A program made the translations under genes and the position numbers. This document shows, one piece after another, positions 8,909 to 44,452 of a DNA stretch of 64,000 bases. Source of the DNA: an uncultured Holophagales bacterium (GTDB lineage: Bacteria > Acidobacteriota > Thermoanaerobaculia > Multivoradales > UBA5704). Under the pieces are notes generated by a model, which was given only the letters and a program-made list of their open reading frames with translations, searched no databases and was not told where the DNA came from. The stretch spans positions 768,001 to 832,000 of the forward strand of contig CAWJGT010000009.1 in the NCBI GenBank assembly GCA_963842525.1, given 5' to 3'. Within the stretch, counting starts at the first letter, position 1, and each line of letters starts with the position of its first letter.

Positions 8909-10744
8909 TCAGCCGGCCGAAACGCGCGCCTGCGCGGCCGGTCTGCGGCGGTCCACGTGCTCGCGGCGCGCGGCGGCGGCTTCCCGGCAACGTCTCCAGC
9001 CATCGACCAGGTCGCGCACGCTCAGCGATTCGGCCATGATCGGGTGCGGCGTCTCCCACTCTTGCATGTTCACCGGTGTCAGGTTGAGGTGGGCGTTCAT
9101 CGCCTGCGGCGACCACAGGGCCCGCACGTTGGCGCCGCCGGTCGTCCACAAGCAGGGGTCGGCGACCGTATAGACGATCAGGGTCTGGCGGCCGAGAGCG
9201 GAGGAGAGGTGGGCCAGGCCGGTGTCGGTCGAGACGACGGTGGCGGCGGTGGAGAGGATGGCGACCATGCCGGGCAGGTCTTCGTGGATCGGCTCGATAC
9301 GCGCGCGTACGTCGTCCGGCAGCCGCGCGATCTCAGGGGCGAAGGAACCCTCCCGATTCGTGTCGCAACTGAAAACGATCCGTTGCGCTTGGCGGGATTC
9401 CCGCTCCGCCGCGGCGCACTCGCGGGCGATCTCGCAGAGGAAGCGCGAGAGCAGGTCCGGAGCGAAAGCCTTGCTGCTCTTCGAGGCCGACTCGATCACG
9501 CAGTGGTAGACCGTGCCGTCGAGCTTGTAGCGGTGGAGCAGCAGCTCGCGGCGGCGCTCGACCGCTGTGCCCAGGGGAAGGCTCATGCAGACCTCGGCGG
9601 GGCGGTCGGTGAGCTTGCAGCCGAGGAGGATCTCGATCAAGCGGTGCAGCTTGGCGGGATAGGAGGTGATATGGCGGCGCGGCGGAACGACCGACTGCCA
9701 GGGCACGATGTCGCGCGAATAGCGGTCGATCAGGAGGTCGACGACCGCGAGCGCCCGTCCGCGGTCTTGCGCCGCTGCCAGAAGCTCCGTCGACACCGCC
9801 GGTGCGGAGCTGACGAGGACGACCGTCCGTTCGTTGTGCCGGCGCAGGTCCTCCGCATAGACCGCGGCCTCCGCCGGGTCCCGCGGCCCGCAGAGGCTGC
9901 GCACGGTGGCGAACGGGTGGCGTTCGGCGATCCCCGCCAGGACCGCCGCGTAAGGGCTGATGATGGTCACCGGACGACGCAGGTGCGGGTGCAGGTCGAA
10001 AAGCTTGCCAAGAGCATCGATGGCGCTCATGCCGAGCAGCGCGTCGCCGAGGGCGTGCGAGGTATAGAACAGGATGCGCTCCGCCTCCACGAACGCCGGC
10101 CGCAGCGAGGCCGCCGCGTCCACGTCGTCGCCGACGCCGGCACAGTCCATCATCAGATTGGCACGGTCGAGGAAGGCCTGGGTGAGCTCGCCGTGCGCCA
10201 GCGCAGGCCGGCGGCCACGGCGGACATCGAGGGCGGCGCACACGGCGCCGAGCTCGATCCGGCCGCGCGGCGAAAGCGTGCCGTGGGTCAGCATGCGGCG
10301 CGCGCGCAAGGCGTCTCCCAGGTCGTCGCCGCCGAGGAAAAGGCGAGCCTCGTGGTTCGACCCGTCGAGCGACAGCGCCTCCTCGAAGAGGGAGCGCGCC
10401 TTCTCGTAGTCGCCGAAGCGCGCCGTCACCTGGCCCAGGAACGACAAGGTCCAGGTGTCGCCGGGGCGTTCCTCGTGCAGGCGCTCGAGCAGGTCCCGGG
10501 ACTCATCCGGCCGGCCGCGCCAGAAGAGGATGCGGGCCAATTCCAGACGGGCGACGTGGGCGTCGTCTTCCGCGAGCCCGGGGAGCCGGGCGGCGAGCAG
10601 GCGCTCGGCACCCGCCAGATCGCCGTTGTTGACCAGCTCGTCCTGCGCCCGGCTCAGCAGAATCGACCCTGCCCGTCCGCGTTGGCGGGCGAACGCTTCG
10701 GCACGCTGCCAGGCGTCGTCGCGCACCACGTTTCCCGCGCTCAC
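8909..10744 (-). CDS. TPR-containing glycosyltransferase family 9 (heptosyltransferase-like)
   Basis: N-terminal TPR-like helices; HALGDALL; VVSTDTGLAHLSSALG. Confidence 0.8.
   Translation of the reverse strand: MSAGNVVRDDAWQRAEAFARQRGRAGSILLSRAQDELVNNGDLAGAERLLAARLPGLAEDDAHVARLELARILFWRGRPDESRDLLERLHEERPGDTWTLSFLGQVTARFGDYEKARSLFEEALSLDGSNHEARLFLGGDDLGDALRARRMLTHGTLSPRGRIELGAVCAALDVRRGRRPALAHGELTQAFLDRANLMMDCAGVGDDVDAAASLRPAFVEAERILFYTSHALGDALLGMSAIDALGKLFDLHPHLRRPVTIISPYAAVLAGIAERHPFATVRSLCGPRDPAEAAVYAEDLRRHNERTVVLVSSAPAVSTELLAAAQDRGRALAVVDLLIDRYSRDIVPWQSVVPPRRHITSYPAKLHRLIEILLGCKLTDRPAEVCMSLPLGTAVERRRELLLHRYKLDGTVYHCVIESASKSSKAFAPDLLSRFLCEIARECAAAERESRQAQRIVFSCDTNREGSFAPEIARLPDDVRARIEPIHEDLPGMVAILSTAATVVSTDTGLAHLSSALGRQTLIVYTVADPCLWTTGGANVRALWSPQAMNAHLNLTPVNMQEWETPHPIMAESLSVRDLVDGWRRCREAAAARREHVDRRRPAAQARVSAG
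10697..10743 (+). repeat. 47-bp direct repeat, copy 1 (5' end of the GT9 gene)
   Basis: TTCGGCACGCTGCCAGGCGTCGTCGCGCACcaCGTTtCCCGCGCTCA; 44/47 identical to 12549-12595. Confidence 0.9.
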
Positions 10745-10751
10745 GTTGGTC

Positions 10752-12497
10752 TCATCGGCTGAGCCCTGATTCTGAGCTCTGGCAGTCCTGACGCCAGACG
10801 GCGGGCAGGCGCTGGAGGATCTCTTCCTTCGACAAGCGACGGGGCTTCACCGCCTGGAGCATCAGCTCGCGCTGCATCAACTGATCGCCGACCAGGATGC
10901 CGTTGGCGTAGAATGTCGCTTCCCCGGCGGCCGCCTCCTCCTCGGTTCCGACGCGCAGGTTGTGCACCGGCACCGCCTTCGGGCTCGGCTGGCGGCCGAC
11001 TTCGACGAGAGCCGCCTCTCCGCTCTCTGTGAGCACGACATCGCCCTGCTTGAGCTGGCTTGCCATGACCGGCCCCCGGGAGGTGACCACCGGGTGCGCC
11101 TCGGTCAGCAGCAAGGTGTGCCCCCGGTCGTCACGGATGCGCACCAGGGGGTGTTCCTCGGAGCCCCAGGTCTTCCCTGTGACCGCGCGCACGTCCGCCT
11201 TGCCCTGTGACCGCACTTTCTCGTCGCCGTAGGCCTGGAACGTCTCGATGGCCCTCTCCGAGCCATCTGCCATGCGGACTTTCACGCCCGCGGGCAGACA
11301 GCCCTGCAGAACGTCGATCTTCGGCACGATCACCGTGTTCGACGTCGCAACCTTCGGCTTCCTGCTGGTGAACGTCGCGCCGATATGGCCGCCCGCCGTC
11401 TGCAGGAACAGTTGGAAGGTGTAGTCGAACAACATGCCGTTCGGCCTCAGGCAGTCCTTGTTCGGAAAGCTGGCGGGATTGAGATTCCAAGTCACGATAC
11501 CCTTGTCCACCTTGATGGCCGAAAGGTCGGTCGTCGCAGTCAGCATGCATCCGCCGCCGGCTGCGTCGGTCAAGGTGATGTCCAGAGACCCCGTCAGAGG
11601 GCTCGTCGGAGCCTTGGCCGGGGTGAAGTTGCCGGCGATGGGAAAGATGATGTTTGGCGGATTGCCGCTGCCCGTGCACCCATAATCGCAGTCGCTGTTG
11701 ACGCGCGGCCCATAGCAGATCTTGATGTTCCCCCGTGTCGGATCGACGCAGGCCGTGGCGGCGTTGGTGTTGCACTGCTGGGTTCCGCCTCCACCGGCGG
11801 GCTTGTAGTTCGGCGAGAGCTGGCAGGCGGCCCTCACGGGCTTCAAATCTGTAAGCAGGATGACGTAGGGCTCTACAAGGTCGTGCTTCTTCTGTTTGAT
11901 CAGGAAGAGCGCGTTGGCTTCGATGTCGCTCTCCGAAACCGGTCTCCCCGCAACCGCGACCTCCAGGTTCGTTTGCGCGCACAAGCTGCCTTCCTTGGAG
12001 CCGATATTGGTGTTTTCCTCGAGGTCGATGAGGGTCAGGATGATCCTCGTGTAATCAGGGACCTGATCGCTCGGGTAGGTCGAGAAGGCGCTGGTGTAGA
12101 AGTCTCCGTCTTCCAGCTGGCCGAACTCGGTGATGTAGTTCACGCCTTCGAGCGTAAGTCCTGCCTTGACGAGGCGCGGCTTGCCCGTTTTGCCGGTTGT
12201 GCGTGCCTTCTCCAGGAGCTTGAATAGATGGGGAGACCTCTCGGCGGAGACGCCGGCCCGGCGGAGTGTGTCGATCACGAAAGCGTACTGCCGCGGGTCG
12301 GCCAGGTTCAGCTTGTAAGGCAGACCGATCGCAACGTTCTGGCGGAGATAGCGGAGATTGGTGACCTCTTTCGCGGAAAGCTTCGTTCCTGTCGGCGCCC
12401 CTCCAGAGCTTTCGGCGCCGAGCAGGGACGAGGCGAGGAATAGCCCGAGCAGAAACATCAAGACGAACGCCGAGTGAAGGGCTTGAGGTTTTCTCAT
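10752..12497 (-). CDS. Secreted Cys-rich protein with a C-terminal Hint autoprocessing domain and tail
   Basis: Signal peptide; G|CLPAGVKVRMADG (block A), LTEAHPV (TxxH), VHNL, TFYANGILVGD (no terminal Asn), then a ~40-aa tail. Confidence 0.85.
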   Translation of the reverse strand: MRKPQALHSAFVLMFLLGLFLASSLLGAESSGGAPTGTKLSAKEVTNLRYLRQNVAIGLPYKLNLADPRQYAFVIDTLRRAGVSAERSPHLFKLLEKARTTGKTGKPRLVKAGLTLEGVNYITEFGQLEDGDFYTSAFSTYPSDQVPDYTRIILTLIDLEENTNIGSKEGSLCAQTNLEVAVAGRPVSESDIEANALFLIKQKKHDLVEPYVILLTDLKPVRAACQLSPNYKPAGGGGTQQCNTNAATACVDPTRGNIKICYGPRVNSDCDYGCTGSGNPPNIIFPIAGNFTPAKAPTSPLTGSLDITLTDAAGGGCMLTATTDLSAIKVDKGIVTWNLNPASFPNKDCLRPNGMLFDYTFQLFLQTAGGHIGATFTSRKPKVATSNTVIVPKIDVLQGCLPAGVKVRMADGSERAIETFQAYGDEKVRSQGKADVRAVTGKTWGSEEHPLVRIRDDRGHTLLLTEAHPVVTSRGPVMASQLKQGDVVLTESGEAALVEVGRQPSPKAVPVHNLRVGTEEEAAAGEATFYANGILVGDQLMQRELMLQAVKPRRLSKEEILQRLPAVWRQDCQSSESGLSR

Positions 12498-12548
12498 GGC
12501 TCCTCTCCGTGAAATGAAAACCGCAGCTCATCAACCGAGCGGCGGAGG

Positions 12549-12595
12549 TTCGGCACGCTGCCAGGCGTCGTCGCGCACTGCGTTCCCCGCGCTCA
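12549..12595 (+). repeat. 47-bp direct repeat, copy 2 (orphan GT9 start overlapping the lectin stop)
   Basis: Minus strand reads TTG-SAGNAVRDDAWQRAE-PPPLG*, against GT9 GTG-SAGNVVRDDAWQRAE. Confidence 0.9.
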
Positions 12596-12982
12596 AGCCG
12601 CGACGGTGATCCTCACCGTGAGCGATCCCTCGTTATCGGTGAAGCCGGCGCCGTAGATGCCGTTCATGTCGTCGTTGATGCTGAGGTGGAGAGGTCCGAT
12701 CAGGCCGTCCGGCACGAAGCCGATGGGGCCGACGGGGAACACCACGGGCGAGCCTCCTGCGACGACGACCTGGCCCACGAGCAGCCCTTCGACCTGCCCC
12801 TCCAGGTTGTATCCCTCCTTGGCGATGAGCCCAGCGTGGCCGTCCGGACCGACCAGGCCGTTGGCCGGGTTGGCGCTCCACTCGCCGTTCGCTGCGATCC
12901 TCACCGTAGCGGTTCCGTCCAACGTCAGCCCGGTGTCCATCCAGAGAGTGGTGGCGTCGACTGTCACGTTGAAGTCTGGCAT
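12593..12982 (-). CDS. LecA/PA-IL-like lectin
   Basis: WMDTG, ANGEW, GPDG, LLVGQV, INDD...DNEGSL (resembles the LecA Ca/sugar loop); AGGAAGG RBS. Confidence 0.75.
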   Translation of the reverse strand: MPDFNVTVDATTLWMDTGLTLDGTATVRIAANGEWSANPANGLVGPDGHAGLIAKEGYNLEGQVEGLLVGQVVVAGGSPVVFPVGPIGFVPDGLIGPLHLSINDDMNGIYGAGFTDNEGSLTVRITVAA

Positions 12983-13015
12983 GGCTCGAACCTTCCTTTC
13001 TCGCGATGTGCCGCT

Positions 13016-15277
13016 CTATTGTCTTCGTCCCGGCGGCGGCGAGCGCCGGAGAGGATCCAGGCCGCTCTTGAGCTGCGTGCCGGTTAGAGCCCTCCGGGCG
13101 ACCGGCGCCTGCTGAGCGACTGACGACACGGCCAGCGCAAAAGGCTGCCTCGAGCCCGGCGCAAGCGTGGCCGCCGTGACGGTGATCGTACATGCGCCCG
13201 CGGGCGTCTGCGCCAGGATCAGCTTTTCGAACGAATTCGCCGTGTCGGCAGGCCCATTGGCGGCCGTCTGGCCGTTCTGCATGCTGGGCACTCCTCCGTG
13301 GTAGACGGTGGTTCCGTCCGCCAGCGTCAGCGTGAGGTCGAGGTCGTTGACCAGCGCTCCCGCCAAACCGGCGTCCGGCGGGTCGTACCAGGTCAGTGTG
13401 ATTGCCAACTGCGTGGCGGCCGAGAACGTCAAGTTGGGGAAGACCACCGACTGTCCCTGTTGGGTGAACACGAAGGCTGCGCCGGGCTCGGTCAGAGAGT
13501 CGAAATACATGATCTGACCGGCGCCGAAACCATCGATCGACTGCCGCAGGTTGATTTCGCCCCAGCCCTGCATGTTGTCGGGCACGTAGTTGTAAAGCGG
13601 CGAAGTGCCGTTGACGAGCAGGGCCTTGACCAGCATCCCCGTCGCGTTGGGCAGGTTCGTCTGGGTGGCGAGGAACTCGCGGAGCAGCACCGCCGAGCCG
13701 GACACCAGCGGCGTCGAGAAGGACGTTCCGGAGGCATAGGCAAAGCCGGGCTGGTTCAGGTACGGCTGGTTGGACGGGCCCGCCCCGGTCGCCGGACAGG
13801 TCGCCGCCATGGACTGGGGACAGCGCATCGCGACCATGGCTCCGGGAGCGCAGACGTCCGGCTTGAGGCGGCCGCCCACCACCGGACCCTGCGAGCTGCT
13901 GTTGGCCATCGCGTTGATCGCCGTGGCCGTGGGATAGGTGAAGGGAGGCCCGGCCGCGCCCGTCGGAGGGGTGCCGTTGCCCGCATTGCCGACCACGAGC
14001 GAATCCTTGGAGCAGCTCAGGGTGCCGATCGAGCCGGCTCCCTGGGCGCCGTAGTTGCCGGCGGAGGTCACTACCAGCATGGTCGGGTTCGTCCCGACGA
14101 ACGTGTCGATGGCGGAGGACCCTTGCAGCGAGTACGTGTTGAGCACAGGAGCGAGAACGGGAAAGGTGCCGGTGGCGGGCACCCAACTGTTGTTGTGCAC
14201 CCGCGCATTCGCGGCGAAGGCGTTGGTCAGAGCGCGATCGATGTTCAGATAGCCTGGTTGCAGCCCGTTCGAATCGGCGTTGAAGGGCCGCATGATGGCG
14301 GTCGCCATAAAGGCTACACCGGTGAGGAGTCCGCCGGCAGAGGTCGCGCCGTTGCCCACGGCCACGTCGGTGACGAAGGTGCCGTGCGACGAGGGGTCGC
14401 CCTTATAGTTGAGGCCGGCCCAGCTTTGCGGGATGGTCGGGGCAGGATTGGTCCAGTTTGCGATGTCGCCGTTGACGCGCCCCTGGAAGTCCGCGAGAAG
14501 GGTTGCGGGATTCCCGGTGTCGAGCCCGGTGTCGTAAATGCCGAGCACCTGGCCGGTTCCGTCGAGGTTGTCGATGTTCGCCCAGGGCGGCGCGGCATTT
14601 GCGCGCACGCCGATCCTCACCGGCGCGATGTCGAGCTCTGGTTGCGGGGTCATGGCCGGCTCGACGTTCCATACGTCCGGCAGCGCCGCGAGCCCGGCCA
14701 GCGCCCTGGTTGGGACCGACACCACCAGCGCTTCCTTGCCGAGGGCGGTCGAGACGACGCGCGCGCTGCCGCCGAGCTTCACGATCTCCTCGGCGGTCGC
14801 CGCCGCTTTTTCAAACACGGTCACGACGACGTCCACCTTGCTCGTCGCGTCCGGGTTCTCGGCGCTCGCCCGCAGCGATGGATCGATCTTGTAGCCCGGA
14901 TGGAAGGCGTCGGCGAAGCGCACGCCCCGGAGCGCCCGGAGCTTCGCCAGGCTCAAATCGCCGACGAGAAGCCCGTGCCGGGCGATGGGGCCATGAATGC
15001 GTCCGCCGGCAGCCCGGATGGCGTCGTAGACCGCGCGTCCTTTCCCGGTCTCGTACTGGACGATCGCAACTCCCGGGTCGCCCTTGGCCAGCAGAGCCGG
15101 CGCCAGCTTCGGCGGCGCAGAGAGCGGATCGAAGGCGAAGTCACGCACGTAGAGCTTCGCGGCATTCGCGGCATCGGGTGAGGGCGGAGGCGGCGCGATC
15201 TGCGCGGCGAGAGCCCAGACCGGCAGGATCCATAGAGCGACGAGCGCGAAGAAGCGGCGTCGAGCGGACGATCTCAT
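13016..15277 (-). CDS. Secreted S8 subtilase, KP-43-like, with a C-terminal beta domain
   Basis: ARRRFF signal; triad DTG/HGT/GTS; SAGN oxyanion; KPDVCAPG; LVNDLDL. Confidence 0.9.
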   Translation of the reverse strand: MRSSARRRFFALVALWILPVWALAAQIAPPPPSPDAANAAKLYVRDFAFDPLSAPPKLAPALLAKGDPGVAIVQYETGKGRAVYDAIRAAGGRIHGPIARHGLLVGDLSLAKLRALRGVRFADAFHPGYKIDPSLRASAENPDATSKVDVVVTVFEKAAATAEEIVKLGGSARVVSTALGKEALVVSVPTRALAGLAALPDVWNVEPAMTPQPELDIAPVRIGVRANAAPPWANIDNLDGTGQVLGIYDTGLDTGNPATLLADFQGRVNGDIANWTNPAPTIPQSWAGLNYKGDPSSHGTFVTDVAVGNGATSAGGLLTGVAFMATAIMRPFNADSNGLQPGYLNIDRALTNAFAANARVHNNSWVPATGTFPVLAPVLNTYSLQGSSAIDTFVGTNPTMLVVTSAGNYGAQGAGSIGTLSCSKDSLVVGNAGNGTPPTGAAGPPFTYPTATAINAMANSSSQGPVVGGRLKPDVCAPGAMVAMRCPQSMAATCPATGAGPSNQPYLNQPGFAYASGTSFSTPLVSGSAVLLREFLATQTNLPNATGMLVKALLVNGTSPLYNYVPDNMQGWGEINLRQSIDGFGAGQIMYFDSLTEPGAAFVFTQQGQSVVFPNLTFSAATQLAITLTWYDPPDAGLAGALVNDLDLTLTLADGTTVYHGGVPSMQNGQTAANGPADTANSFEKLILAQTPAGACTITVTAATLAPGSRQPFALAVSSVAQQAPVARRALTGTQLKSGLDPLRRSPPPGRRQ

Positions 15278-15377
15278 CGGCTGAGCCCTCCAGCGAAGAA
15301 GAGGACATGATACTATCAGACTTGCACGAAGCCTGTCGAAGCTTAGATTCATTGCTCTGTAAGCATTGGAGATTCGG

Positions 15378-16901
15378 GTGAACCCGGAGGAGATCGCACG
15401 CTACCAGGGCCTGGCGCGCGAGGTGATCGCGAATCCTCCGCCCTATCCGAAGGAGCGCTATACCGGACGCGGCGTGGTGGTCTGCGGCGGCGGCGCCAGG
15501 TACTTCACCTGTGCCTACGTCTGTCTCAGCATGCTGCGCCAGACCGGCTGCCGGCTACCGGTCGAGCTGTGGCATCTCGGCCCGCTGGAGATGAACGACG
15601 ACATGCGCGCGCTGGTCGCGCCGCTCGACGTCACCTGCGTGGACGCGAGCGAAATGCGCAAGGAGCAGCCGGTCCTGCGGCTCCATGGCTGGGAGCTCAA
15701 GCCGTACTCGATCCTCCATTCACGGTTCGAGGAGGTGCTGTTTCTCGACGCGGACAACGTGCCTCTGGTGAACCCGGAGGTCTTCTTCACGTGTGCGGAG
15801 TACGAGCGCACCGGGGCGCTCTTCTGGCCGGATTTCAGCCCGCTCGACAGGAAGAACCCGATCTGGGAGCTGGCGGAGGTGGAGTACCGCTATGAGCCGT
15901 CCTTCGAAAGCGGCCAGCTCGTCGTCGACAAGCGGCGCTGCTGGGCGGAGCTGCAGCTCACGATGCACTACAACGAGCACTCGGACTGCTATTACCGGCA
16001 CACGGGGGGAGACAAGGACACGTTCCACATCGCGTGGCGGCGGCTGGGCCGGCCCTATGCGATGATCCCGCATCACGTTCAGGCGCGCGGCGGCGTGGTG
16101 ATGTGCCAGCACGATTTCACCGGTGAGGTGGTCTTCCAGCACCGCAACAATGCGAAATGGACGCTCGATCTCGACGCCAATCCGCGGGTGGCAGGGTTCC
16201 GCCACGAAGGGCGCTGTCTCGAGATCCTGCGCGAGCTCGCCGCGCGCTGGAACGGCGATCCGGCCCGGCTGCGTCCGGATTCGCCACAAGCGCGCCGGCT
16301 GCACGACGAAATCGAAGCGACGGAGAAGTACGTCTATGACCGGGTCGGCCACGACCGCCGGGTGATCCGCCTGCACACCGACCAGAGCATCTCCGGTGCG
16401 GGCAGCCTGGAGACGTCCTGGTTCGTGATGACCCGCGAAGACGGCGAGCCCGTCCTGTGCATTGCCGGCTCGCAGGGGATCACCTGCCTCCTTGCGCCGC
16501 GCGGCGACGGGGCCCTGACCGGCCGCTGGGAGCTCTTCGAGCGCATGCCGATCGACCTCCTTCCTCTGTCTCTGGTCCCGGCGGAGGATCTGCTGCAGAT
16601 CGAGCGCGACGCCCGCCACACGGCCCTGTGCGGGCTGGCGGCCCTGGTGGTCCACGTGCGGCGCGAGCGGAGGCTGGTCCGCTTCGAGCCGGGCGGAGGC
16701 CTTTCGAGCCAGGACGGCTCCCCGGACGGCTGGCGCTGGGGCCTTCGCTGCCGAGCCGGCGAGCTGGCGCTCGAGCTCACCGAGGCGGACGGCAGCCGGC
16801 GCCTCCTGTTCGAGGAGCCCGACGGCGTCTTCCGCGGTGAGGCGTGCTCCGGGCGCGACCGGGTGGAAGTCATTCCGCTGCCGGGACTGAAGCTCCCTTG
16901 A
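15378..16901 (+). CDS. GT71 (Mnn2/Mnn5-like) alpha-mannosyltransferase with two C-terminal ~80-aa beta domains
   Basis: RGVVVCGGG, LPVELW, EEVLFLDADN, ALFWPD, ESGQLVVDK, GDKDTF. Confidence 0.85.
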   Translation: MNPEEIARYQGLAREVIANPPPYPKERYTGRGVVVCGGGARYFTCAYVCLSMLRQTGCRLPVELWHLGPLEMNDDMRALVAPLDVTCVDASEMRKEQPVLRLHGWELKPYSILHSRFEEVLFLDADNVPLVNPEVFFTCAEYERTGALFWPDFSPLDRKNPIWELAEVEYRYEPSFESGQLVVDKRRCWAELQLTMHYNEHSDCYYRHTGGDKDTFHIAWRRLGRPYAMIPHHVQARGGVVMCQHDFTGEVVFQHRNNAKWTLDLDANPRVAGFRHEGRCLEILRELAARWNGDPARLRPDSPQARRLHDEIEATEKYVYDRVGHDRRVIRLHTDQSISGAGSLETSWFVMTREDGEPVLCIAGSQGITCLLAPRGDGALTGRWELFERMPIDLLPLSLVPAEDLLQIERDARHTALCGLAALVVHVRRERRLVRFEPGGGLSSQDGSPDGWRWGLRCRAGELALELTEADGSRRLLFEEPDGVFRGEACSGRDRVEVIPLPGLKLP

Positions 16902-16947
16902 GCTCCTTCTCCAGTGCTTCGACCGCGAGATCGCGCCGCTTCTGGGG

Positions 16948-19455
16948 ATGCGCAGGCCGACATTCCGGCGGCTGTTCGAGCTTCTGGAGGGACGGCGACA
17001 GGACTCCTACACCATCGTCGAGACCGGCGTCGCCCACCTCGCCGCTGCCGACGGAAGGCCCGGCTTCCACGCGGTCCACGGCCAGAGCACGCTCCTGTTC
17101 GACCAGTTCGTCAACGCTCGGGGAGGTGCGGTCTACAGCGTCGACTGCTCGCCCGTGCACTGCCGGCGGGCGCGGAGCTGGGTGAGCGACAGAGTCCGTA
17201 TCTTCTGTCACGACAGCCACACGTTTCTGGCCGGCTTCAGCGCGCCGACGCCCATCGACTGCCTCTATCTCGATTCGCTGGCCGTCGATTGGAGCGATCC
17301 GCATCCGAGCGCGCTGCATCATCTTGAAGAGCTGTGCGCCATTCTGCCGCGCCTGCCGGAGGGTTGCATCGTCGTCGTCGACGACACGCTACGCGGCATC
17401 GGAAAGGGCGGCTACATCGTCGAGGTGATGGAGCGCATCGGCGCCCGGCTCCTCTTCGAGGGCTATCAGGTGGCATGGCAGCTCACGGGTCCTCCGCCGG
17501 CGATCCGGCCCTGGGGGTGCTACGCGCCCGACGAGCTGGCGTTCGTGCTGGCTCGCCCGGCCGCCCTCTCGTACCGCTACGTGCGCGTGGGCTCCGACGA
17601 GCGCATCCTGGAGCTTCTGCCCGACGGCACGATCGGCCATGGGAAGGGGGAGCTGGAAGAGCGGTGGTTCGCCGAGCGCGCTGCCGGCGGAGGCGTCGGG
17701 CTGGTTCTCGCGGGCAGCGGGCGGATCACGGCGCGCCTCTCCCCCGTGCCACCGGAGGACCGTTGGCGCGGGCACTGGCTGGTCCACGATCGCGAGGCGG
17801 TCGAGCTGTGGCCGCTGCCGCCGGACGACGGAGTCATGCCGTCCGGCCGTTACTGGCTGCGCGCGGCCGAGGGCGGGGCACGCCCGCTCGGGTTGCTCGC
17901 TTCGCACGACGTCTGGAACCGTGGCGCCGGAGCCGAGACGTGGCGCATCGAACGCGGCGAGGACGGGCAACCGGTCCTCCTGCTTGCGGCGGCGGGCCGC
18001 GACCGATGGCGTTTCCATCCGGACCGCGAAGGGTGCTGGCAGGGGAGCTCGACCGCCGATCCGCCTGTCGCGGCATCGCTCGAGCTCCTCGGCCAGACCA
18101 GCGACAGCGAGGCCTCCGCGCGCACCGCTCTCGCCGCGCGCCGCCTGTTCCGATATCGCCGGGAAGGCGATGGCGAGTGGCCGATCGAGCTGGTGCCGGA
18201 CGGGACGATCGGCCGGGGCGCCACGCCGACCGAGGCCGCCTGGGACGTCGAGGACACCGGAGACGGCGAGCTCGCGCTCCTCCTCTACGGGCGCGACTCG
18301 ATGGCCGTGCGGCTGGCACAGCAGCCGGACGGCTCGTTCCTGGGCAAGTGGCCGCTGCACGACCGGCGGACGGTAAGGGTCGAGCCGCTCGACCGCGGCT
18401 CGGGCGCCTATCTCCTGCCGATCTTCACCGCGTGCCTGCCGCGCCGGCAGATCCGCCGCATCGTCGAGGTGGGAGGCGGCGACGGAGTCGACGCCGTCGC
18501 GCTGCAGCGCTATTTCGACGCCGACGTCATGGTCTTCGAGTGCAATCCCGACCTGCTCTCTGCCTGTGCCAAGCGTGCCGCTGCGTGTCCCCGCGTCACC
18601 CTGGTCGCCAAGGCCGCCGGCGAGGCCGAAGGGATGATCCCTTTCTATCGCGTGACCAACGGGAATCCGCACGCGTCCTCGTGCTTCGTCGCCAATCCCG
18701 CCTATCCCTACGAGGTCTACGTACAGGAACGCTGCGAGGTGGAGATGATCCGGCTCGACGGCTTCCTGGACGCGCAGGGGCCGGAGACGCCGGAGACCAT
18801 CGGCCTCCTGGCGATCGATGTCCAGGGAGGCTGCCTGGGCGTGCTCCGCGGCCTCGGAGCGCATCTCGACCGCGTGCGCTACGTCATCGCCGAGATCGGC
18901 ACCCGTCCCCTGTACGAAGGAGAGGCGCTGGCGCCCGAGGTCATCGCGTTCCTCGCCGGCCGCGGCTTCCATCTCCTGCGCTGGTTCGACCAGTGGGGAG
19001 TCCTGCCCGACGGAGATCTCGTCGACCCCACCGTCTTCCCGCGGCAGTACGCCGGGGCCGAAAGCTGGTTCGGCGACTACCTCTTCGTGCGCAACACACC
19101 GCGCGAAGCGGCGGCCGCGGCCGCCATCACCGCGCACCGGTTCTTCCGCTACGTGCGCCTGGGCCATGACGAACGGACGCTCGAGCTGCTGGCCGGCGGG
19201 CAGATCGGAGAGGGGCGCGGCGGGTGCGAGCGGAACTGGATCGTGGAGGAGCAGCCCGACGGCGCTGTCGAGCTGCTGCTGCTCGGTCTCGAGCAGGTGA
19301 CCTGCCGCCTCCTGCACGGCCCCGACGGCCGCTGGCGGGGGCGGTGGACGTCCCACGAACGGATGCCCGTCTTCCTGGAGCCGCTCCCGGCGGAGTCTCA
19401 GGCAGGATCCCAGGGAGCCTGCGAGGAGCCGAGCAGGGTTTCGCTGGAGGTGTAG
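16948..19455 (+). CDS. Double SAM methyltransferase (class I plus FkbM-like) with four ~80-aa repeat domains
   Basis: IVETG..LYLDS..VVDD; IVEVGGGDG..FECNP..IDVQG..YVIAE. The true start may be TTG 16898 if one C is missing near 16908. Confidence 0.8.
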   Translation: MRRPTFRRLFELLEGRRQDSYTIVETGVAHLAAADGRPGFHAVHGQSTLLFDQFVNARGGAVYSVDCSPVHCRRARSWVSDRVRIFCHDSHTFLAGFSAPTPIDCLYLDSLAVDWSDPHPSALHHLEELCAILPRLPEGCIVVVDDTLRGIGKGGYIVEVMERIGARLLFEGYQVAWQLTGPPPAIRPWGCYAPDELAFVLARPAALSYRYVRVGSDERILELLPDGTIGHGKGELEERWFAERAAGGGVGLVLAGSGRITARLSPVPPEDRWRGHWLVHDREAVELWPLPPDDGVMPSGRYWLRAAEGGARPLGLLASHDVWNRGAGAETWRIERGEDGQPVLLLAAAGRDRWRFHPDREGCWQGSSTADPPVAASLELLGQTSDSEASARTALAARRLFRYRREGDGEWPIELVPDGTIGRGATPTEAAWDVEDTGDGELALLLYGRDSMAVRLAQQPDGSFLGKWPLHDRRTVRVEPLDRGSGAYLLPIFTACLPRRQIRRIVEVGGGDGVDAVALQRYFDADVMVFECNPDLLSACAKRAAACPRVTLVAKAAGEAEGMIPFYRVTNGNPHASSCFVANPAYPYEVYVQERCEVEMIRLDGFLDAQGPETPETIGLLAIDVQGGCLGVLRGLGAHLDRVRYVIAEIGTRPLYEGEALAPEVIAFLAGRGFHLLRWFDQWGVLPDGDLVDPTVFPRQYAGAESWFGDYLFVRNTPREAAAAAAITAHRFFRYVRLGHDERTLELLAGGQIGEGRGGCERNWIVEEQPDGAVELLLLGLEQVTCRLLHGPDGRWRGRWTSHERMPVFLEPLPAESQAGSQGACEEPSRVSLEV

Positions 19456-20368
19456 CTCCGCTGGAGCGGATCGGGCGGATGTCCGCCGCAGCCATACAGG
19501 GCCGGCCGGTAGATCCGGGAAAGGTCGCCGGCCAGGGGCGCGAGGTCGCGCAGGCGCGCGACGTCCTCCTGGCGCACGAAGAAGGCGTTGACGCCGGCGT
19601 TCTCTGCATAGACCAGGACGTACCCCAGCCTCGCGCCGAGACGCTGGAGAGCGAGCTGGCTGGCGCCAAAGTAGCGCGTCCCGTCCCAGGATTTGTCCGG
19701 TCCCTCGTACGGGACCACGAGGTCCTCGCCGGGACCGTGTGCGCCGTTGTGCTCGACGATCACCACGCGGGGAGAGAGCAGCTCGCCGATCCGCCACCAG
19801 AATCGTAGTAGTCGACGTCGATGCTGAGCACGTCGAGCTGCCTGGGGACCTGGTAGCGCTCGACCAACGCGGGGATGTTGTCGAGCGTGACCAACTCGCG
19901 GTAGAGGCCGCGGGACGGATTGTGAAAGCCCAGGTCCCATTGCAGCACCGTGGCTCCCGCCTCGGCCAACACGCGGGTGTTGCACTCGCTGCCGTCTCCG
20001 ACGCCGAACTCCAGCGCGACCGGCCCGCGCACGCCGAGCTCCTGGAGCAGCGCCAGGAGAACGCCATCCTCGCCGTTCTGCGAACGCAGGCGAGCCTCGG
20101 CGCCGTACAGCGGGCTCTCCTTGTACCAGCTCAGACCGTTGTCCCAGTCGATGCGGTGCGTGCCCGCGAGCCGGGCCTCAGGATGGTCCGGACCGAAGAA
20201 GACGCGGAAGCGCACGGGCGCCTCGATCCATTCGAACCGCAGCCTCGGCAAGCGCAACCGCGGGTCTCCGTCACCGGCGATCCGGATGCGCCAGCCGGGG
20301 TAATACCATGTCCCCAGGAGGTCGGCGGGCGGATCAGATCCGGGAACGACGATCAGCTCCTCGATCAA
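19398..20368 (-). CDS. FkbM-like methyltransferase, frameshifted near 19800
   Basis: SQNGEDG, LEFGVGDGSECNT, LDVLSIDVD | PRVVIVEHN, YFGAS, GVNAFFVR; start uncertain. Confidence 0.75.
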
Positions 20369-20414
20369 GCTGAATCCCCAGTGCTGCGGCCGGAAGCAGA
20401 AGAACGGCGGCGGA

Positions 20415-22511
20415 TCAATCCTGGCCGGTGCGGAGCCACCAGTAAGAGCCCTGGCTCGGCTTGCGCCGGACGTTGGTGGCACAATGGATTTCGCCGTGAT
20501 CCATGTGGTATGCCCAAGTGTCGACGCTGGTCCCTGTAAAGCCGTAGCGCCCCAACACGCTGAGAGTGTAGGCTTCAAAGACGTCCGCATTCGCCTCGAC
20601 CGTGAAAGGTTCCGTGATGGGTATCTGAATCGGGCCCGGCGTGACGGGCCCGTAGGGTTTGGGGAAAAGACAGCGATTGGAAAGCACGAGCATGTTGACG
20701 ATATCGGCGGTCAAGGCTTCGAGCTTCATCATCGCTTGAAAGAACAGGACGGGGACCTCCTCGATCACGACTTGCGATTCCGGAAACTCGTCACGAATGC
20801 GCTGGATCACTCCCAAAAGCTTTGCCTGTGCAGATTTAGAGTCGAACTCTCCCTCTCCTTGCTGTGTGCTCGTGAGCACGGACTCATACCTCGCTCTGGG
20901 GTCCTCCGACTCCTCGAGCTCGAAATCCACTCCGAGGTTGATGAAATCCGCCCCGGGGGCTATCGGAGCCGCCAAGAAATCCACGAGCGACTGCCCGGCC
21001 TGGCGCGTTCCGTCGGCCAGTTTTATCTCCCGGTCAGTGAGAATCGTCGCGCCGGGGTGCTGGAGCAAAGTTTCGTAGATCAGGCGATAGGCGAGCCGCG
21101 GGCTCGGGACCAGCGCCAGGGCGCGGCGGTCGGGCAGCGGCAGGAAGCACACGACTTCGTCCGCGTGCCCGACTCGGAGCCAGGAGGCATCCAACGAAAA
21201 TGGCCGCTGAACCCTCTGCGCCCTGAGGAAATCTTTGAGATCCTCACGCGAGGGCTCGGAAAAATAGACTCTGCCGAGGATGTCGTCGCCGAGGGGCGGA
21301 GTAACCTCCAGATTCCCGAAGGCGAGGGTTGTGTTGGTGTTTGGCACTTGTTCGCCAACCTGGAACACGCTCATACCAAGCTTTTCTTCGGTCACGCGCC
21401 CCTGCCATCTTTCGACGGGCGAGCGGAGCGCGACCATCACTGCGCGTTCCGCGGTGGCGCGCGTATGGCCGATTTCGAAGCCGTCCTGCATGAATAGCCT
21501 TTCGGCCGCAGACTCGGTAGTGATCTGCTCACGCTGAAGCCCGCACTCTTGAAGGGCCTCCACGGTCGTTGTATACCGGTGCTGTTCATTAGGCGGAGAA
21601 GGCCCTCCTCCCGGGGAGAGCTTCAGCGCCACGTAACCGTGCTCCACCTCTTCTCCGTGATGCATCATGACCCAGGGCGCGATCCGCAAGCGGGCGTACT
21701 GCGGCTCGCCGGCGATCCCGTTGATGAGCGGTGTGAAGGTCACGACCACGCATGGGTCCGCCGCCAGGTCGCGCAGGTACTGGGTTGCTTCCGCGAAGAA
21801 CCGCACGACACCGTCGCCCTCGGCGGGGAATGCGAACTGGTGGACCCCTCGATCCAGAACGATGGCGCCGCCTTCGGCCGTAAAAAACCGAACTCTCTCG
21901 GGAGCGCTGACCGCGATGATGCCCTCTACCATGGGACGCGGTGATGCGCCGAGCACTGACTCCGTCAGTCGAAATTCGAAAGGCGCCCAAGCTTCGCGAT
22001 TCGGTTCAGGGTTCTCGTTCGCAATCAGGATCGCACCGCGCCCCTCGGGCCCGAAGGTCCACTGGTCGATCCCTTCGGAAACCAGCACGCCGTTGCGTGC
22101 GGCGTCCACGAACATGCGTGCGGCCGGCGCCGGCGGCGCCTTGAGTACAACGACGATCTCGACCTCCAGAGAGCCTTGGTTGTCCGCCAAGCCATCCCCG
22201 TGCTGCGCGTTGAGGTCGTCGTTGATTCCCAAAAACAACTGTCCGCGACCCATCGCGGAAACGTTCGCGCCCCGCCCCCCCACCCAGAAAACGGCTTCGC
22301 CGATCTTCCCCACCAAGCCGCCTTCCGGTTGGCCCGGAACCGCATAGCCGTCCGTGGCGGTGTGCTTGGAATCCCCTTCCGGGCCGTATCGGCCCGAGTC
22401 CGGATTGCACGTCCACTCTCCGCCCTTGCAGAGGACGTACACGTCGTGACCCTCGTCAACGACGACTCCCGTCGCCGTCCAACGAACGTTGGCAAGCACC
22501 TGGACTTTCAT
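20415..22511 (-). CDS. LecA-like lectin fused to a protein-arginine deiminase (PAD)
   Basis: N-terminus is paralogous to the free lectin; PAD motifs IAPW, FMQD, GNLEVTPP, WLRVGHADE, PKPYGP, GEIHCATN. Confidence 0.85.
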   Translation of the reverse strand: MKVQVLANVRWTATGVVVDEGHDVYVLCKGGEWTCNPDSGRYGPEGDSKHTATDGYAVPGQPEGGLVGKIGEAVFWVGGRGANVSAMGRGQLFLGINDDLNAQHGDGLADNQGSLEVEIVVVLKAPPAPAARMFVDAARNGVLVSEGIDQWTFGPEGRGAILIANENPEPNREAWAPFEFRLTESVLGASPRPMVEGIIAVSAPERVRFFTAEGGAIVLDRGVHQFAFPAEGDGVVRFFAEATQYLRDLAADPCVVVTFTPLINGIAGEPQYARLRIAPWVMMHHGEEVEHGYVALKLSPGGGPSPPNEQHRYTTTVEALQECGLQREQITTESAAERLFMQDGFEIGHTRATAERAVMVALRSPVERWQGRVTEEKLGMSVFQVGEQVPNTNTTLAFGNLEVTPPLGDDILGRVYFSEPSREDLKDFLRAQRVQRPFSLDASWLRVGHADEVVCFLPLPDRRALALVPSPRLAYRLIYETLLQHPGATILTDREIKLADGTRQAGQSLVDFLAAPIAPGADFINLGVDFELEESEDPRARYESVLTSTQQGEGEFDSKSAQAKLLGVIQRIRDEFPESQVVIEEVPVLFFQAMMKLEALTADIVNMLVLSNRCLFPKPYGPVTPGPIQIPITEPFTVEANADVFEAYTLSVLGRYGFTGTSVDTWAYHMDHGEIHCATNVRRKPSQGSYWWLRTGQD

Positions 22512-22663
22512 GGAAGCCCTCCCGCAGGAGCCCGGGTAACGCAGATCAGCAAGAGGCGGCGAGCGCACGGGCGAATCGGCGCCGACGCGCGCACGCGCCG
22601 CCAGCCCATCTCGGCTACATCTGGAATCTTCTAAAGATTACCGCAGAGCTGACTTCTTGTCCA

Positions 22664-38243: not shown

Positions 38244-39440
38244 CTATTGACAGAGATCGCCGCGGAGATTCTCGAAGCGGAATCTTTCGGAGGGAATCAG
38301 ACGGACCTGCTCCAACTCGTTTCGGAAGTCTCTCACAGCCGCTTTCACAAGCACAGCCCAATGGTCGGGGCCAGGTACGATCGTCAGATCGTTCGCCCGG
38401 GTCATCAAGACCGCTGTACCGACGACCCGCTCCTGCCCCGGCTTAGGATCGATCCTGCTGATCATCCAGCGGGACCCTTCACGCTCCGGAACTCGGAAGA
38501 CAAGATACAGATAACCGTCCCAGCCGAAGAGGCCGGCCGGCATCAGCGACTTCTCGATAGCCTGCATTACGACAGGTACATCCGCGCGGCTGAGCAGGTC
38601 CGGCAGGAGCGGCGCCGGCCTGCCCGCGAGTTCTTTCGGAAAGGCCTTTAACGGCTCGGCAGGCTGACCGGCCGAGGCGAAGCGGTAGATGCCCATCCCT
38701 TTGTCCACTGTCACAGCATAGGCAGTCTCGCCTACGGCAGCGATCATGGGATAGCCGAGTCGGTAGAAGATCCGCTCTGGAGCGCGCAACTTCCTCTGCG
38801 AGAGTATCTGAACCTCGGAGGGAATTCCCGGCGAAGAGCTTACGGGGAAACGCATGAACCCGCTGCTCCAGTTCGTCAGCTCGTCTTTGTTACCTCTGTA
38901 GAAATCGCCATACGCGACCACAAAGTCGCCTGCCATCTGCCAATCGAAGATACCCCCGACGTGAACCCACCCCCCCTTCACCGGCAGATCGACCGCACCC
39001 GCGCCTTCAACCATCTTCATCTGCCTCCGTTGGTCGACGGTCGCGAAGCGGTTCATGTCCATCTCGATGACCAGCGCTCGCTCCGGAGAGCCGCCGGCCT
39101 GAATCCGCCTTGGAAAGGAGTTGGTGAGTCCTACGGAAAACACCCGCGGAATCGCGACCTCGGCGCCAGGTTTCATCCTATAGTCGAGAATCTTGCGCTG
39201 AAAGGAGTCGGAGAGGAGCAGGTTTTCTGGGCCGTCCCACGCTCCGGAGACAACCCACTGAGGTGGGTTCTTCAGCTGGATCGACCGGCACGACCGCGCT
39301 GGCGCGCCCGCAGAAGTCCTCCCTTGCGCCAAAAGGGAGGGAGTCTCCGATCCAGAGCAACACCAAACACAGCAGCACGGCTAATGCTGCATAAGACCGC
39401 AATCGTTCACGGGAGCCGCCTCGCAGGCCGGTGGAAACCA
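38244..39440 (-). CDS. Hypothetical secreted protein (beta-rich); signal peptide probably separated by a frameshift near 39335
   Basis: 362-aa ORF 38244-39332; the adjacent frame gives YAALAVLLCLVLLWIG ending at a T run. Confidence 0.55.
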
Positions 39441-40356
39441 CATGCTGACGGTTCCCCTCGAACCCGCCGTACAGAGGCGGATCTCTTCGCCGACGACCTG
39501 GGCCCTCCTCGTGACGATGCAGGGGCTCGAAGCCTCGCTGGGAAACATACCGATCAGGGAAACGAAAATGATGCCCCCCCCCGTTTTCTTCATCCTCTGC
39601 GAACAAAGCTTCATTCTCTCTCCTCCCTTCAGAGCGCATAGGTTTGCCTCCTGTTTCGGGACAGGTAGACCCCATCTCCGGTGGATTTGTTTAGATCGGG
39701 ATCGATTCTGGTCTGTGGGGAGGAGATTGAGAACAAGCCTCACGGCCGAAGAGGAGAGCACCACAGCAGCGGAGACAGCAAGCGAGGAGGCTTTCTGCTC
39801 GGCTTCACCGTTCGGAGCATACACGGTTCGGCTTCCTTTCCGATCCACACGCATGATCGCCGCCATCTACCCGACCGTCGCGTCGGCGGAGAGCCGTCTA
39901 TAGGCATCTGCTCCGATTCGCGAAGTACCTACCTCCTGACGAGCTCCCAGAACTGGGTCGACGACGACATCACTCTAAAGCTTAAAGGAGCAGGGCAATT
40001 TTAGTCAATGGCCCCTTTCAAGTCAAGAGCGCTCCTCCGGCGCTCCAACACAACGGAACAAGCGGTGGGCGGAGGGGATACTCGGGGCTAAATAAAGCCG
40101 TGACAGTAACTTACGCGCATAGTGGCAAGAGACAAATCACCTTAACGCGAGAGAGTTTAGTGAGCTACGGATGCGCATTTCTGCATCCAGGTTCAAGTCC
40201 AGTTCAAGCGCCGAGGCTCTAGGCGTTCTCGATGTCTAGCTCCTACACTCTTCGGAGAGTGCTATCCTAGCAGGCTGAAGTATAGCCCATGGGGCCGCCA
40301 GTGCCGCGAGAACCGGCGCCGGCTGCTCTTTTTTGAACGCCCCAGGAGGTCACCGC

Positions 40357-41877
40357 GTGTCGACCGAGCGAAGCGCAGCATGTTCCATAGCTGCTCTCAT
40401 GGTCTTTGGGGTCTTCCTGCTCCTCAGCTCATGCAAACCCAGCGCGGACGAATTACTTAGCTGGTCGCTGCCCACCGACCTGCCTGAGCACCAGACCCAT
40501 CTCAAGTTCCTCTACCTGCCGTCTGGGGTGAAGCGCCTCGACTGGCTGGCCCCAAACCTCGAGCACCTTGTCGCCCGGGGGGCTACCGCCGAAGGCCTCG
40601 CGGGCCTGCCCGAGGGACTCATCAGCCTCGATGTCGCTTATAGCCAAGTCCGGCAAATCGGGGCCCTTCCTCCCTCTTTGAGAAGGCTGGACCTCCGGTT
40701 CTCCGACGTCACAGACCTGCACGGCCTCCCAGTTGGAATCCAGTGGCTCGCTCTAGGAGGACCTCGCATCAAGTCTTTGGCAGGGGTCTCATCGTCAGTA
40801 CGCGAGCTGGTCTTGGAGGAGGCGCCCGCCTTACGGGGCCTCGAGAACCTTCCCCGCTCCCTCGAGGCCCTAACCCTGATCGGAGCGAGCTTCAACGATA
40901 TGATCGGAGCGCGCTTCAACGACCTCGGCGGCCTCCCGCCATCTCTGCGTAACCTTGAGCTTGATGGGACCCGCATTACGGAGCTCGCCGCCCTCCCGAA
41001 CTCTCTGCATCGTCTTGTGCTCAGAAACAACAGCCAGCTCCGTGGCGGCTCTGTATTACCTCGGTTTTTGACCAGCTTGACCGTTGACAATTACAGCGTC
41101 GGCAATCTTGCCAGCCTGCTTTATCTCACCGAGCTGGAGGTCAGCGGCAGGCCACTAGAGGAACAGCCGCTGCCGCCCTCCCTTCGCTCGCTCCGCCTCC
41201 ATAGGGTGCCTCTACCGCAAGACTTGCAAGAGCTTCGATCGCTCCGCAGCCTCGCGGTGGTTTGGCGCGGGGTGGACGATTTCGCCTCTCTGCCCCCCGC
41301 GCTCGAAACCCTGGAGCTGGAGTGGTCGAGCCTGCCCGAGCTCTCGGAATGCCCAGAGACGTGGAAACGTTTGAAGCATCTGAATCTCAGCTCCTCCGTT
41401 TTGAAGAGTCTCCCTCCGCTCCCTCTGGGGCTGGAGAGCCTTGACCTCAGCGCGACCGGCATTGCACAACTCGACGCCTTGAACGTAACGAAAATCAAGA
41501 ACCTCCGTTTCCGACAGGCGCCCTTCTCCATGCTACCCGAATTGCCAGAGACTCTTGAGTCTCTTGATCTGGCATATTCGCCAGACCTGCAGCAGGTCGC
41601 AAAGTGGCCGAATCGATTGGAAACACTGAACATCAGTTATACCAGAATCACCAGCCTGCAGGGTCTGCCATCATCGCTCAAGGTCCTCGACATCCGAGGA
41701 ACTCCGATTCACTCCCTTGCGGAGCTGCCTCAAGATCTCGGACTCGAGCGACTCATCCTGAGTCCGGGACAGTTTACGAAGCTCGATGGGCTGCCGGAGT
41801 CCGTCACCGCTCTCTGCTTTTTCGATCCTATTGGCACGGAGGAGGAGCAGTCGGAACCCGATTGCGGCCGGGAATGA
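40357..41877 (+). CDS. Leucine-rich-repeat lipoprotein
   Basis: AGGAGG then GTG; lipobox-like LLLSSC; many LPxxLxxLxL repeats. Confidence 0.85.
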   Translation: MSTERSAACSIAALMVFGVFLLLSSCKPSADELLSWSLPTDLPEHQTHLKFLYLPSGVKRLDWLAPNLEHLVARGATAEGLAGLPEGLISLDVAYSQVRQIGALPPSLRRLDLRFSDVTDLHGLPVGIQWLALGGPRIKSLAGVSSSVRELVLEEAPALRGLENLPRSLEALTLIGASFNDMIGARFNDLGGLPPSLRNLELDGTRITELAALPNSLHRLVLRNNSQLRGGSVLPRFLTSLTVDNYSVGNLASLLYLTELEVSGRPLEEQPLPPSLRSLRLHRVPLPQDLQELRSLRSLAVVWRGVDDFASLPPALETLELEWSSLPELSECPETWKRLKHLNLSSSVLKSLPPLPLGLESLDLSATGIAQLDALNVTKIKNLRFRQAPFSMLPELPETLESLDLAYSPDLQQVAKWPNRLETLNISYTRITSLQGLPSSLKVLDIRGTPIHSLAELPQDLGLERLILSPGQFTKLDGLPESVTALCFFDPIGTEEEQSEPDCGRE

Positions 41878-41884
41878 TACCCTG

Positions 41885-43904: not shown

Positions 43905-43957
43905 TTCATATCAGGCCTGGGGCAGTTCGTCATATGCCTTGAGGCGAAAGACCGACC

Positions 43958-44206: not shown

Positions 44207-44452
44207 CCGCGCCCATTGCGGCCCTTGACCCAGGGGCTGGCACGGATCTGGTATACGCCTTCCCTCCGGAGGTAGAATTCGCTTCTCACTCCTGAGTGTG
44301 GCCGGCTCAAGGTTGGGGGGAATTTGAGTCTCGGGGACTCGGTTTTCTTTCGCGCAGGACCAACAAGCCACTTGGCGTCCCAGGGTCCGGCACCGTGGCG
44401 GATCGGCGCGTGCCGCTCCCTCCCGGAAGTCCAGAGGGACAGGAGAACTGAA

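Follow-up and report, generated by a model that had tools for sequence, protein, structure and literature searches.

A LecA-fold domain in the place of PAD_N in a predicted peptidyl-arginine deiminase from an uncultured Holophagales bacterium

In this work we analysed a 64,000-nucleotide stretch of DNA from an uncultured Holophagales bacterium of the Acidobacteriota (contig CAWJGT010000009.1 of assembly GCA_963842525.1, positions 768,001 to 832,000; hereafter the window). Its minus strand carries at positions 20415–22511 a gene for a protein of 698 amino acids (AA), LecA-PAD, in which a LecA-type lectin fold is joined to a peptidyl-arginine deiminase (PAD) of the PADI family. The gene is genuine, and its product varies the domain architecture of an enzyme family that is known: bacterial enzymes of Pfam family PF03068 and LecA-like domains were both already known, and their fusion is what is new. 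The literature yielded no paper that joins LecA or PA-IL with a PAD, although the supplements of Harris et al. and Cummings et al. might list the architecture. We see about an even chance that LecA-PAD is an active, leaderless, three-domain peptidyl-arginine deiminase with a calcium-binding LecA-fold module in place of PAD_N. The catalytic domain would convert arginine side chains of peptides or proteins to citrulline by the Cys-thiouronium route, through Cys677, His449, Asp343 and Asp451. In place of the cupredoxin-like PAD_N found in animal and late cyanobacterial enzymes, the protein would carry the LecA/PA-IL-fold sandwich, with a calcium site (Asp98, Asp110 and Asn111) kept. This module would bind a ligand, most likely a glycan, in a calcium-dependent way and so anchor the deiminase to a surface or substrate that bears glycans. 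Like other LecA-family domains, it may in addition bring the enzyme together in dimers. Two bacterial PF03068 enzymes active on peptides or proteins provide a precedent, cyanoPADI (Cummings et al.) and the citrulassin PAD (Harris et al.).

LecA-PAD is composed of three domains. The LecA/PA-IL-fold beta-sandwich (AA 1–123, positions 22143–22511) stands at the very N-terminus. It is followed by a Pro/Ala-rich linker (AA 124–129, 22125–22142), placed between the end of the domain envelope and the start of the profile–profile match at residue 130, by a PAD_M-like, immunoglobulin-type middle domain (AA 130–273, 21693–22124) that is all-beta in the structure model, and by the PAD catalytic domain (AA 274–692, 20436–21692); the stop codon lies at 20415–20417. 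Only one of the eight columns of the linker region 124–131 is invariant in the LecA-PAD clade, formed by the window protein and the four full-length relatives described below. An alternative GTG start at 22568 would add 19 residues that are not hydrophobic; we took the ATG at 22511 as the start because a Shine-Dalgarno-like GGGAGGG (22517–22523) lies 5 nt upstream of it and because all four relatives begin at the equivalent position. The absence of a signal peptide, already noted in the first-pass annotation made from the sequence alone, holds: residues 2–6 form the first beta-strand of the N-terminal domain in the model (predicted local distance difference test score, pLDDT, 98), and a crude hydrophobicity heuristic scored the N-terminus as not signal-like. 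Four terminator-like sites were found, all within the PAD gene, a number within expectation.

The catalytic domain is assigned by both sequence and fold. It matches PF03068 over profile positions 8–394 of 395 (E 8.9e-44; 150.5 bits, cut-off 25). Human PAD4 is its best match in the PDB (E 1.8e-31 with phmmer), where 27 distinct sequences match, all of them vertebrate PADs; the top Foldseek matches of the PAD part are likewise PAD4, PAD3, PAD1 and PAD2 (E about 1e-26), with about 20% identity in the fold alignments. Q342-D343, G448-H449-A450-D451-E452 and H676-C677 align with the QD, GHxDE and HC motifs of PAD4 and are unchanged in all 12 aligned homologues, so that the four catalytic positions read by eye in the first-pass annotation are indeed present. 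Their codons, each checked, lie at 21483–21485 (Asp343), 21159–21167 (His449-Ala450-Asp451) and 20481–20483 (the nucleophile Cys677), and in the alignment they fall on the catalytic residues of PAD4, Asp350, His471, Asp473 and Cys645 (Harris et al.). Asp343, His449, Asp451 and Cys677 are invariant in all five members of the LecA-PAD clade. The counterpart of Arg368, another residue invariant in the clade, is the second Arg in the SPRNRG motif of PAD4, which we take to be the backbone-binding Arg374. The Porphyromonas-type PAD (PPAD, PF04371) carries out the same overall chemistry, deimination of a guanidino group. LecA-PAD has no Pfam match at E ≤ 1 to PF04371, the family of PPAD and agmatine deiminase, in agreement with the initial view that it is a PADI-family enzyme distinct from PPAD; the two families are not alignable beyond short active-site motifs (Harris et al.). 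From these conserved residues we infer that the catalytic domain is able to deiminate peptidyl-arginine.

The middle domain is of the PAD_M type, minus one element. With Pfam alone PAD_M stays below threshold (19.2 bits, cut-off 24.8), and hhalign of the clade profile against seven PAD_M-bearing bacterial PADs gives a probability of 100% (E 1.9e-74) from residue 130 to the end. What the predicted domain lacks is the acidic calcium loop of PAD_M, deleted as a 16-column gap in hhalign and as a 24-column gap in the 12-sequence alignment. In the alignment with PAD4, Gly344 stands at the Glu of QDEME and Arg363 at the Asp of FDSPRNRG, which we take to be the calcium-site-2 ligands Glu351 and Asp369; Gln342, Glu346 and Glu402 preserve the residues (Gln, Glu and the Glu of GNLEV) that presumably form site 1. 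The PAD4 Asp in GPDFG is replaced by Ser, whereas the four relatives retain Asp, and two histidines follow APW where PAD4 has TPN. PAD_N has no Pfam match in LecA-PAD, residues 1–123 having the LecA fold instead. Without the calcium loop of the middle domain, and with other residues in place of the site-2 ligands, the animal-type calcium switch probably does not operate, and at most site-1-like ligands remain. According to Cummings et al., bacterial and fungal PADIs outside the animal and late cyanobacterial clade are without PAD_N and without calcium sites 2 and 4, and have a divergent PAD_M; in the fungal and actinobacterial type a histidine motif follows the APW strand, which the histidine pair of LecA-PAD resembles. 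Conversely, features in the Clade Ai definition of Cummings et al. are missing here, namely PAD_N, calcium sites 2 and 4 and the middle-domain switch. The description of the enzyme as animal-type in the first-pass annotation is therefore right only in the sense of belonging to PF03068 and not to PPAD; below family level, the features match the non-animal bacterial and fungal type.

The N-terminal domain models with the LecA-type jelly-roll fold that had been suspected for it, so that one outcome named in the first-pass annotation as a refutation, a domain without this fold, did not occur. Its AlphaFold model, built on a 33-member alignment, reaches a mean pLDDT of 96.8, and Foldseek places LecA of Pseudomonas aeruginosa at the top (template-modelling score, TM, 0.80–0.85, E 1e-6), followed by PllA of Photorhabdus and the EclA N-terminal domain from Enterobacter cloacae (EclA-N). 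These three make up the ten best PDB matches (TM 0.68–0.85), the next match having an E value of 0.06. A profile of 33 short module members also finds LecA (E 8.5e-5) and PllA (E 3.4e-4) in the PDB. The domain shares with the three lectins the sandwich and the ND...DN.G calcium-loop pattern, and all three are leaderless, as are the window proteins; it differs from them by an identity of only 22–26% and by a calcium loop four residues longer. In this loop (22179–22220), Asp98 (22218–22220) and Asp110-Asn111 (22179–22184; codons checked) are invariant in 33 of 33 module members, standalone and C-terminal copies included, and the profile alignment matches them to the Asp and the Asp-Asn pair of EclA-N and PllA. 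The calcium ligands of EclA-N are Asp114, Asp121 and Asn122 (EclA paper, 2024). The three side-chain ligands are thus conserved, and the metal site, predicted from the alignment, is well supported. The N-terminal domain also appears to be as constrained as the catalytic domain: 50 of 123 and 170 of 419 columns, respectively, are invariant in the LecA-PAD clade (41% each), and identity to the four relatives is 48–53% and 50–51%.

The PADI family is patchily distributed, in less than 1% of bacterial species (295 species in Cummings et al.; 837 bacterial PAD proteins in Harris et al.), and Acidobacteriota, the host phylum of LecA-PAD, is not named in the available text of either paper. The fusion is rarer still. 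A search of 5.8 billion clusters gave four full-length relatives, all metagenomic (P0003–P0006; 46–48% identity, 99–100% coverage), and eight more distant PADs without the LecA module; the closest non-lectin PAD relatives are 25–29% identical. Repeating the search with the 12-sequence alignment added only a 358-AA fragment identical to the window protein. No LecA-PAD was found in 185,579 species genomes, a set that did not yield the window's own genome either; 163 pattern matches there came down to two loci with distant PADs (24–26%) lacking the lectin domain, and none of the five weak PAD matches in a plasmid collection (Streptomyces, Embleya and Bacillus) carries it either. As a separate observation, a metagenome-assembled genome of an uncultured Microscilla sp. 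(Bacteroidota; NZ_CANLRP010000121.1, 9089–11206) encodes a PAD homologue whose motifs (at the APW strand, the QD site, an SPRNRG-like site and the GNLEV site) look much closer to the human PAD4 strings than those of the window protein do; this may be an animal/cyanobacterial-type PAD outside cyanobacteria.

In a PAD tree of 14 rows the five LecA-PAD proteins form one clade (support 100/100) in which the window protein is the first branch, and a Leptolyngbya PAD–ubiquitin-hydrolase fusion is sister to it (92/92). Judged from this clade of five sequences, to which it is common, the fusion is old. The N-terminal domain taken separately gives a less sharp picture. In a tree of 64 rows (19 chosen copies and 45 taken at random from 154 proteins) the window module adjoins the other LecA-PAD modules (53% identity); a FastTree of 208 domain copies set it apart from P0003–P0006, which we judged to be an artefact given the better model of the 64-row tree. 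Approximately unbiased (AU) tests reject neither the five PAD N-domains as one clade (p 0.47) nor the PAD N-domain and its free paralogue in the window as sisters (p 0.48); these groupings are beyond the resolution of the short domain. The GC content at third codon positions (GC3) of the PAD gene, 0.75, is the second lowest of 35 genes (window mean 0.859, standard deviation 0.059), and is even over the three domains (0.77, 0.76 and 0.74); the GC content dips across the gene. Such a composition fits acquisition as one unit, and suggests that the gene reached this genome already fused.

The module itself is widespread. When residues 1–125 were searched exhaustively against 1.84 billion cluster representatives, 1039 proteins matched at E ≤ 0.001, of which 214 at E ≤ 1e-10, so that LecA-PAD's N-terminal domain belongs to a LecA-like branch that is much larger than the characterized lectins and mostly unannotated. 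A Pfam scan covered 135 of the 150 listed module proteins (13 longer than 900 AA and two already known were left out): PA-IL was matched at E ≤ 0.001 by 23 of them, 19 at or above the gathering score, and most had no Pfam match. Two of four longer homologues, scanned separately, also matched PA-IL. Among 154 proteins with 208 copies, the module is C-terminal in 65, standalone in 35, repeated in 34, N-terminal in 12 and internal in eight. Its partners include glycoside hydrolases, CBM25, Laminin_G_3, PKD, tyrosinase, S10 and M60-like peptidases, phosphatidylserine decarboxylase, a TIR domain and a cytidine/MafB19-like deaminase; the glycoside hydrolase, CBM25, Laminin_G_3 and PKD partners fit a carbohydrate- or surface-binding role. 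EclA, in which a LecA-like domain is fused to a second lectin whereas its partner in LecA-PAD is an enzyme, was termed the first LecA domain fused to another domain (EclA paper, 2024). By contrast, the sequences collected here contain hundreds of LecA-like module fusions.

Several results weigh against the proposal of a glycan-directed, active deiminase. Neither LecA-PAD nor the free paralogue matches Pfam PA-IL (PF07828) at E ≤ 1. With the single sequence of the N-terminal domain, a PDB search reaches LecA only at E 0.55. His50 of LecA-PAD aligns with His50 of LecA, which together with Gln53 we take to contact galactose, in a column that is variable in the module family, and the positions aligned to the galactose contacts vary across the family generally. 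The LecA-like domain of EclA binds calcium and had no ligand on two glycan arrays (EclA paper, 2024), and since EclA-N has both the fold and the calcium site, these are no proof of sugar binding. Citrullination aimed at glycosylated targets, as the first-pass annotation has it, is an inference. Signal-like N-termini were scored, by the crude hydrophobicity rule, in 32 of 154 module proteins and in none of six window or LecA-PAD proteins; with no leader peptide, the site at which LecA-PAD would meet a glycan is unclear. On the enzyme side, the full-length model has a mean pLDDT of 66, with residues 290–399 and 671–698 below 50. Because these ranges contain Asp343 and Cys677, active-site geometry is not readable from the model, which around the active site says no more than the family match does. 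An enzyme that has lost the calcium loop and the site-2 ligands could be altered or weak in activity. A promoter scan found no sigma-70-like promoter near the PAD gene (0.3 expected), and the architecture is carried by at least five LecA-PAD sequences, a minimum count as the word pre-filter was saturated at 8000 candidates in both cluster searches.

Animal PADs form head-to-tail dimers, and the LecA-like domain might mainly be an assembly scaffold that di- or tetramerises the enzyme and takes the role of the N-terminal domain in such dimers. We consider this unlikely, although it deserves to be weighed first. The domain occupies precisely the position of PAD_N, and its conservation is as strong as that of the catalytic domain; LecA and PllA form homotetramers, EclA dimerises via its LecA-like domain, and EclA-N provides the precedent of such a domain without a sugar ligand (EclA paper, 2024). 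A scaffold alone would need no calcium triad, yet the triad is invariant in all 33 module members, including the standalone and C-terminal copies.

A distinctly doubtful reading is that the LecA-like module is a portable address label, shuffled in one uncultured lineage onto unrelated leaderless enzymes (a deiminase of arginine, a deaminase of nucleotides and two or more unknown domains), and that LecA-PAD is one of a set of effectors in which an N-terminal cassette directs varied "warheads" to the surface of other cells or to an export route; as such an effector, LecA-PAD would citrullinate glycan-coated targets on or inside other cells. Two proteins from short metagenome contigs speak for shuffling: P0021 (319 AA) and P0031 (510 AA) have N-terminal modules 80% and 72% identical to those of the LecA-PAD proteins P0005 and P0003, followed by C-terminal parts that are unrelated to PAD and have no Pfam match. 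In addition, P0083 consists of an N-terminal module and a MafB19-like/cytidine deaminase, P0024 of a TIR domain and a module, and the composition of the PAD gene looks foreign. P0021 and P0031 could nevertheless be chimeras or fragments, given the short assemblies they come from, and represent either recent module shuffling or assembly chimeras. The N-terminal placement of the module is in the minority (12 of 154 proteins). Secretion-system, immunity and toxin-delivery genes are not evident next to the PAD gene, no secretion or defence genes were recognised among the 39 open reading frames (ORFs) of the window scanned with Pfam, and PADLOC gave no match for LecA-PAD, the free paralogue, P0021, P0031 or P0083. 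If this reading were true, lectin-guided effectors that modify proteins or nucleic acids would make up a new class, and LecA-PAD would be the first bacterial PADI-family enzyme used as a targeted weapon or surface editor.

It is improbable that LecA-PAD tailors a ribosomal peptide natural product whose gene lies elsewhere, with an N-terminal domain that recognises the peptide and not a sugar. The idea draws on the citrulassin PAD, which modifies a distantly encoded lasso peptide and which alone among bacterial PF03068 enzymes outside the cyanobacteria has an assigned substrate, and on the diverse, uninformative gene neighbourhoods of bacterial PADs (Harris et al.); like theirs, the neighbourhood of LecA-PAD says little on substrate. 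On the other hand, no genes for lasso peptides or other ribosomally synthesised and post-translationally modified peptides were recognised among the 39 ORFs, and the LecA fold is not a known peptide-recognition element. Moreover, citrulassin-type PADs are actinobacterial, and the plasmid-borne Streptomyces matches are only 27–28% identical to LecA-PAD over 41–52% of the query.

The window contains one other copy of the module, a free 129-AA paralogue at 12593–12982 (minus strand): a domain profile run against the six-frame translation found exactly two copies, this one at 6e-42. The alignment by eye of the first 120 or so residues of LecA-PAD with this ORF in the first-pass annotation is borne out by BLASTP, with 41% identity over 125 columns to residues 2–121 (E 4e-20). 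The annotation had further imagined that the free protein co-assembles with, competes with or chaperones the deiminase, here through lectin–lectin contacts. The homology of the two domains, the homo-oligomers formed by the fold (EclA paper, 2024), the presence of only these two copies in 64 kb and the sister relation left standing by the AU test would be in keeping with this; we nonetheless hold it to be very improbable. The two genes are 7.4 kb apart, with two plus-strand genes between them (mannosyltransferase-like and double methyltransferase). The free gene lies 33 nt after the stop codon of an S8 subtilase gene (13016–15352) and is followed by a gene for a secreted Hint-domain protein and a gene for a tetratricopeptide repeat (TPR)-glycosyltransferase. 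Nearest relatives differ, being P0034, P0030 and P0026 for the free paralogue in the unconstrained tree (56% identity) and the other LecA-PAD modules for the N-terminal domain of LecA-PAD (53%), and the module family has more than 1000 clusters. The Protein Atlas places the free paralogue in "hypothetical protein" clusters only, one with PA-IL on 17% of its members. No functional link between the two proteins is shown, and they belong to different gene groups.

Least probable of all is a catalytically dead or much weakened deiminase that has lost calcium-dependent active-site ordering. In favour of it are the missing acidic loop, Gly344 and Arg363 at the presumed site-2 positions and the absolute calcium requirement of the human and cyanobacterial enzymes (Cummings et al.). 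Against it, a clade of only 46–53% identity has kept all four catalytic residues and the Arg for the substrate backbone without change, which points to selection on catalysis; moreover, sites 2 and 4 are also absent from fungal and actinobacterial PADIs (Cummings et al.), and an actinobacterial PAD is active in vivo (Harris et al.).

The surroundings of the two genes call for a few further observations. The GlpX protein encoded in the window has its best named relatives (83–87% identity) in metagenome-assembled genomes of Thermoanaerobaculia, which fits an uncultured acidobacterial host. The PAD gene is 202 nt downstream of a same-strand group encoding an M23 peptidase, an S41 peptidase and a divergent polysaccharide deacetylase. 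At its 3′ end it is overlapped over about 175 nt by a 276-AA ORF without Pfam match (19760–20590, minus strand); a real gene there, if any, must start further downstream. The interval 19456–20414 has no confidently called gene. Glycan-building genes lie beside and between the lectin-like genes (8909–19455), for a TPR and GT9 heptosyltransferase-like protein and a Mannosyl_trans3 glycosyltransferase, together with an 835-AA protein with FkbM-type and other methyltransferase domains; that the lectin-like domains recognise the product of these neighbouring genes is a guess. The Hint-domain protein directly downstream of the free paralogue (10752–12497, minus strand, 581 AA) has a signal-like N-terminus and a weak pretoxin-Hint match below the cut-off (E 6e-4), and GC content dips to 0.61–0.63 over this stretch. 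Tyrosinase, which is fused elsewhere to a LecA-like module (P0084), is encoded in the window at 50579–51811 (minus strand) by a gene that adjoins HEAT-repeat and SCO1/SenC-like genes and lacks the module. A mobile-element patch occupies 54948–62177, with Mu-like transposase/integrase genes (54948–56423 and 58099–59517), group II intron RNA domains (56830–56970 and 62025–62177) and a reverse transcriptase-maturase gene (60507–62015). About 5 kb at 39333–44323 holds one small called ORF (41671–41967), with no tRNA and no Rfam match.

Compared with the two bacterial enzymes of assigned activity, cyanoPADI of Cyanothece and the citrulassin PAD of Streptomyces albulus, LecA-PAD has the same Pfam family, the same catalytic tetrad and a PAD_M-like middle domain; it differs from them by the deleted acidic loop and by the N-terminal LecA-fold domain, which is unreported in the available parts of Cummings et al. 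and Harris et al. Enzymes of the PADI family are rare in bacteria, and an activity has been assigned to these two alone. The mostly unannotated LecA-like branch behaves as a promiscuous fusion module, and broadens a lectin family on which nearly all work has concerned a virulence factor in a few pathogens; if the N-terminal domain of LecA-PAD binds no sugar, it would be the second LecA fold with an unknown ligand, after EclA-N. LecA-PAD would also show whether a PAD works without the calcium switch. Above all, an enzyme in which a regulatory or dimerising first domain has been swapped for a ligand-binding lectin fold would be a natural experiment on how citrullination can be aimed.

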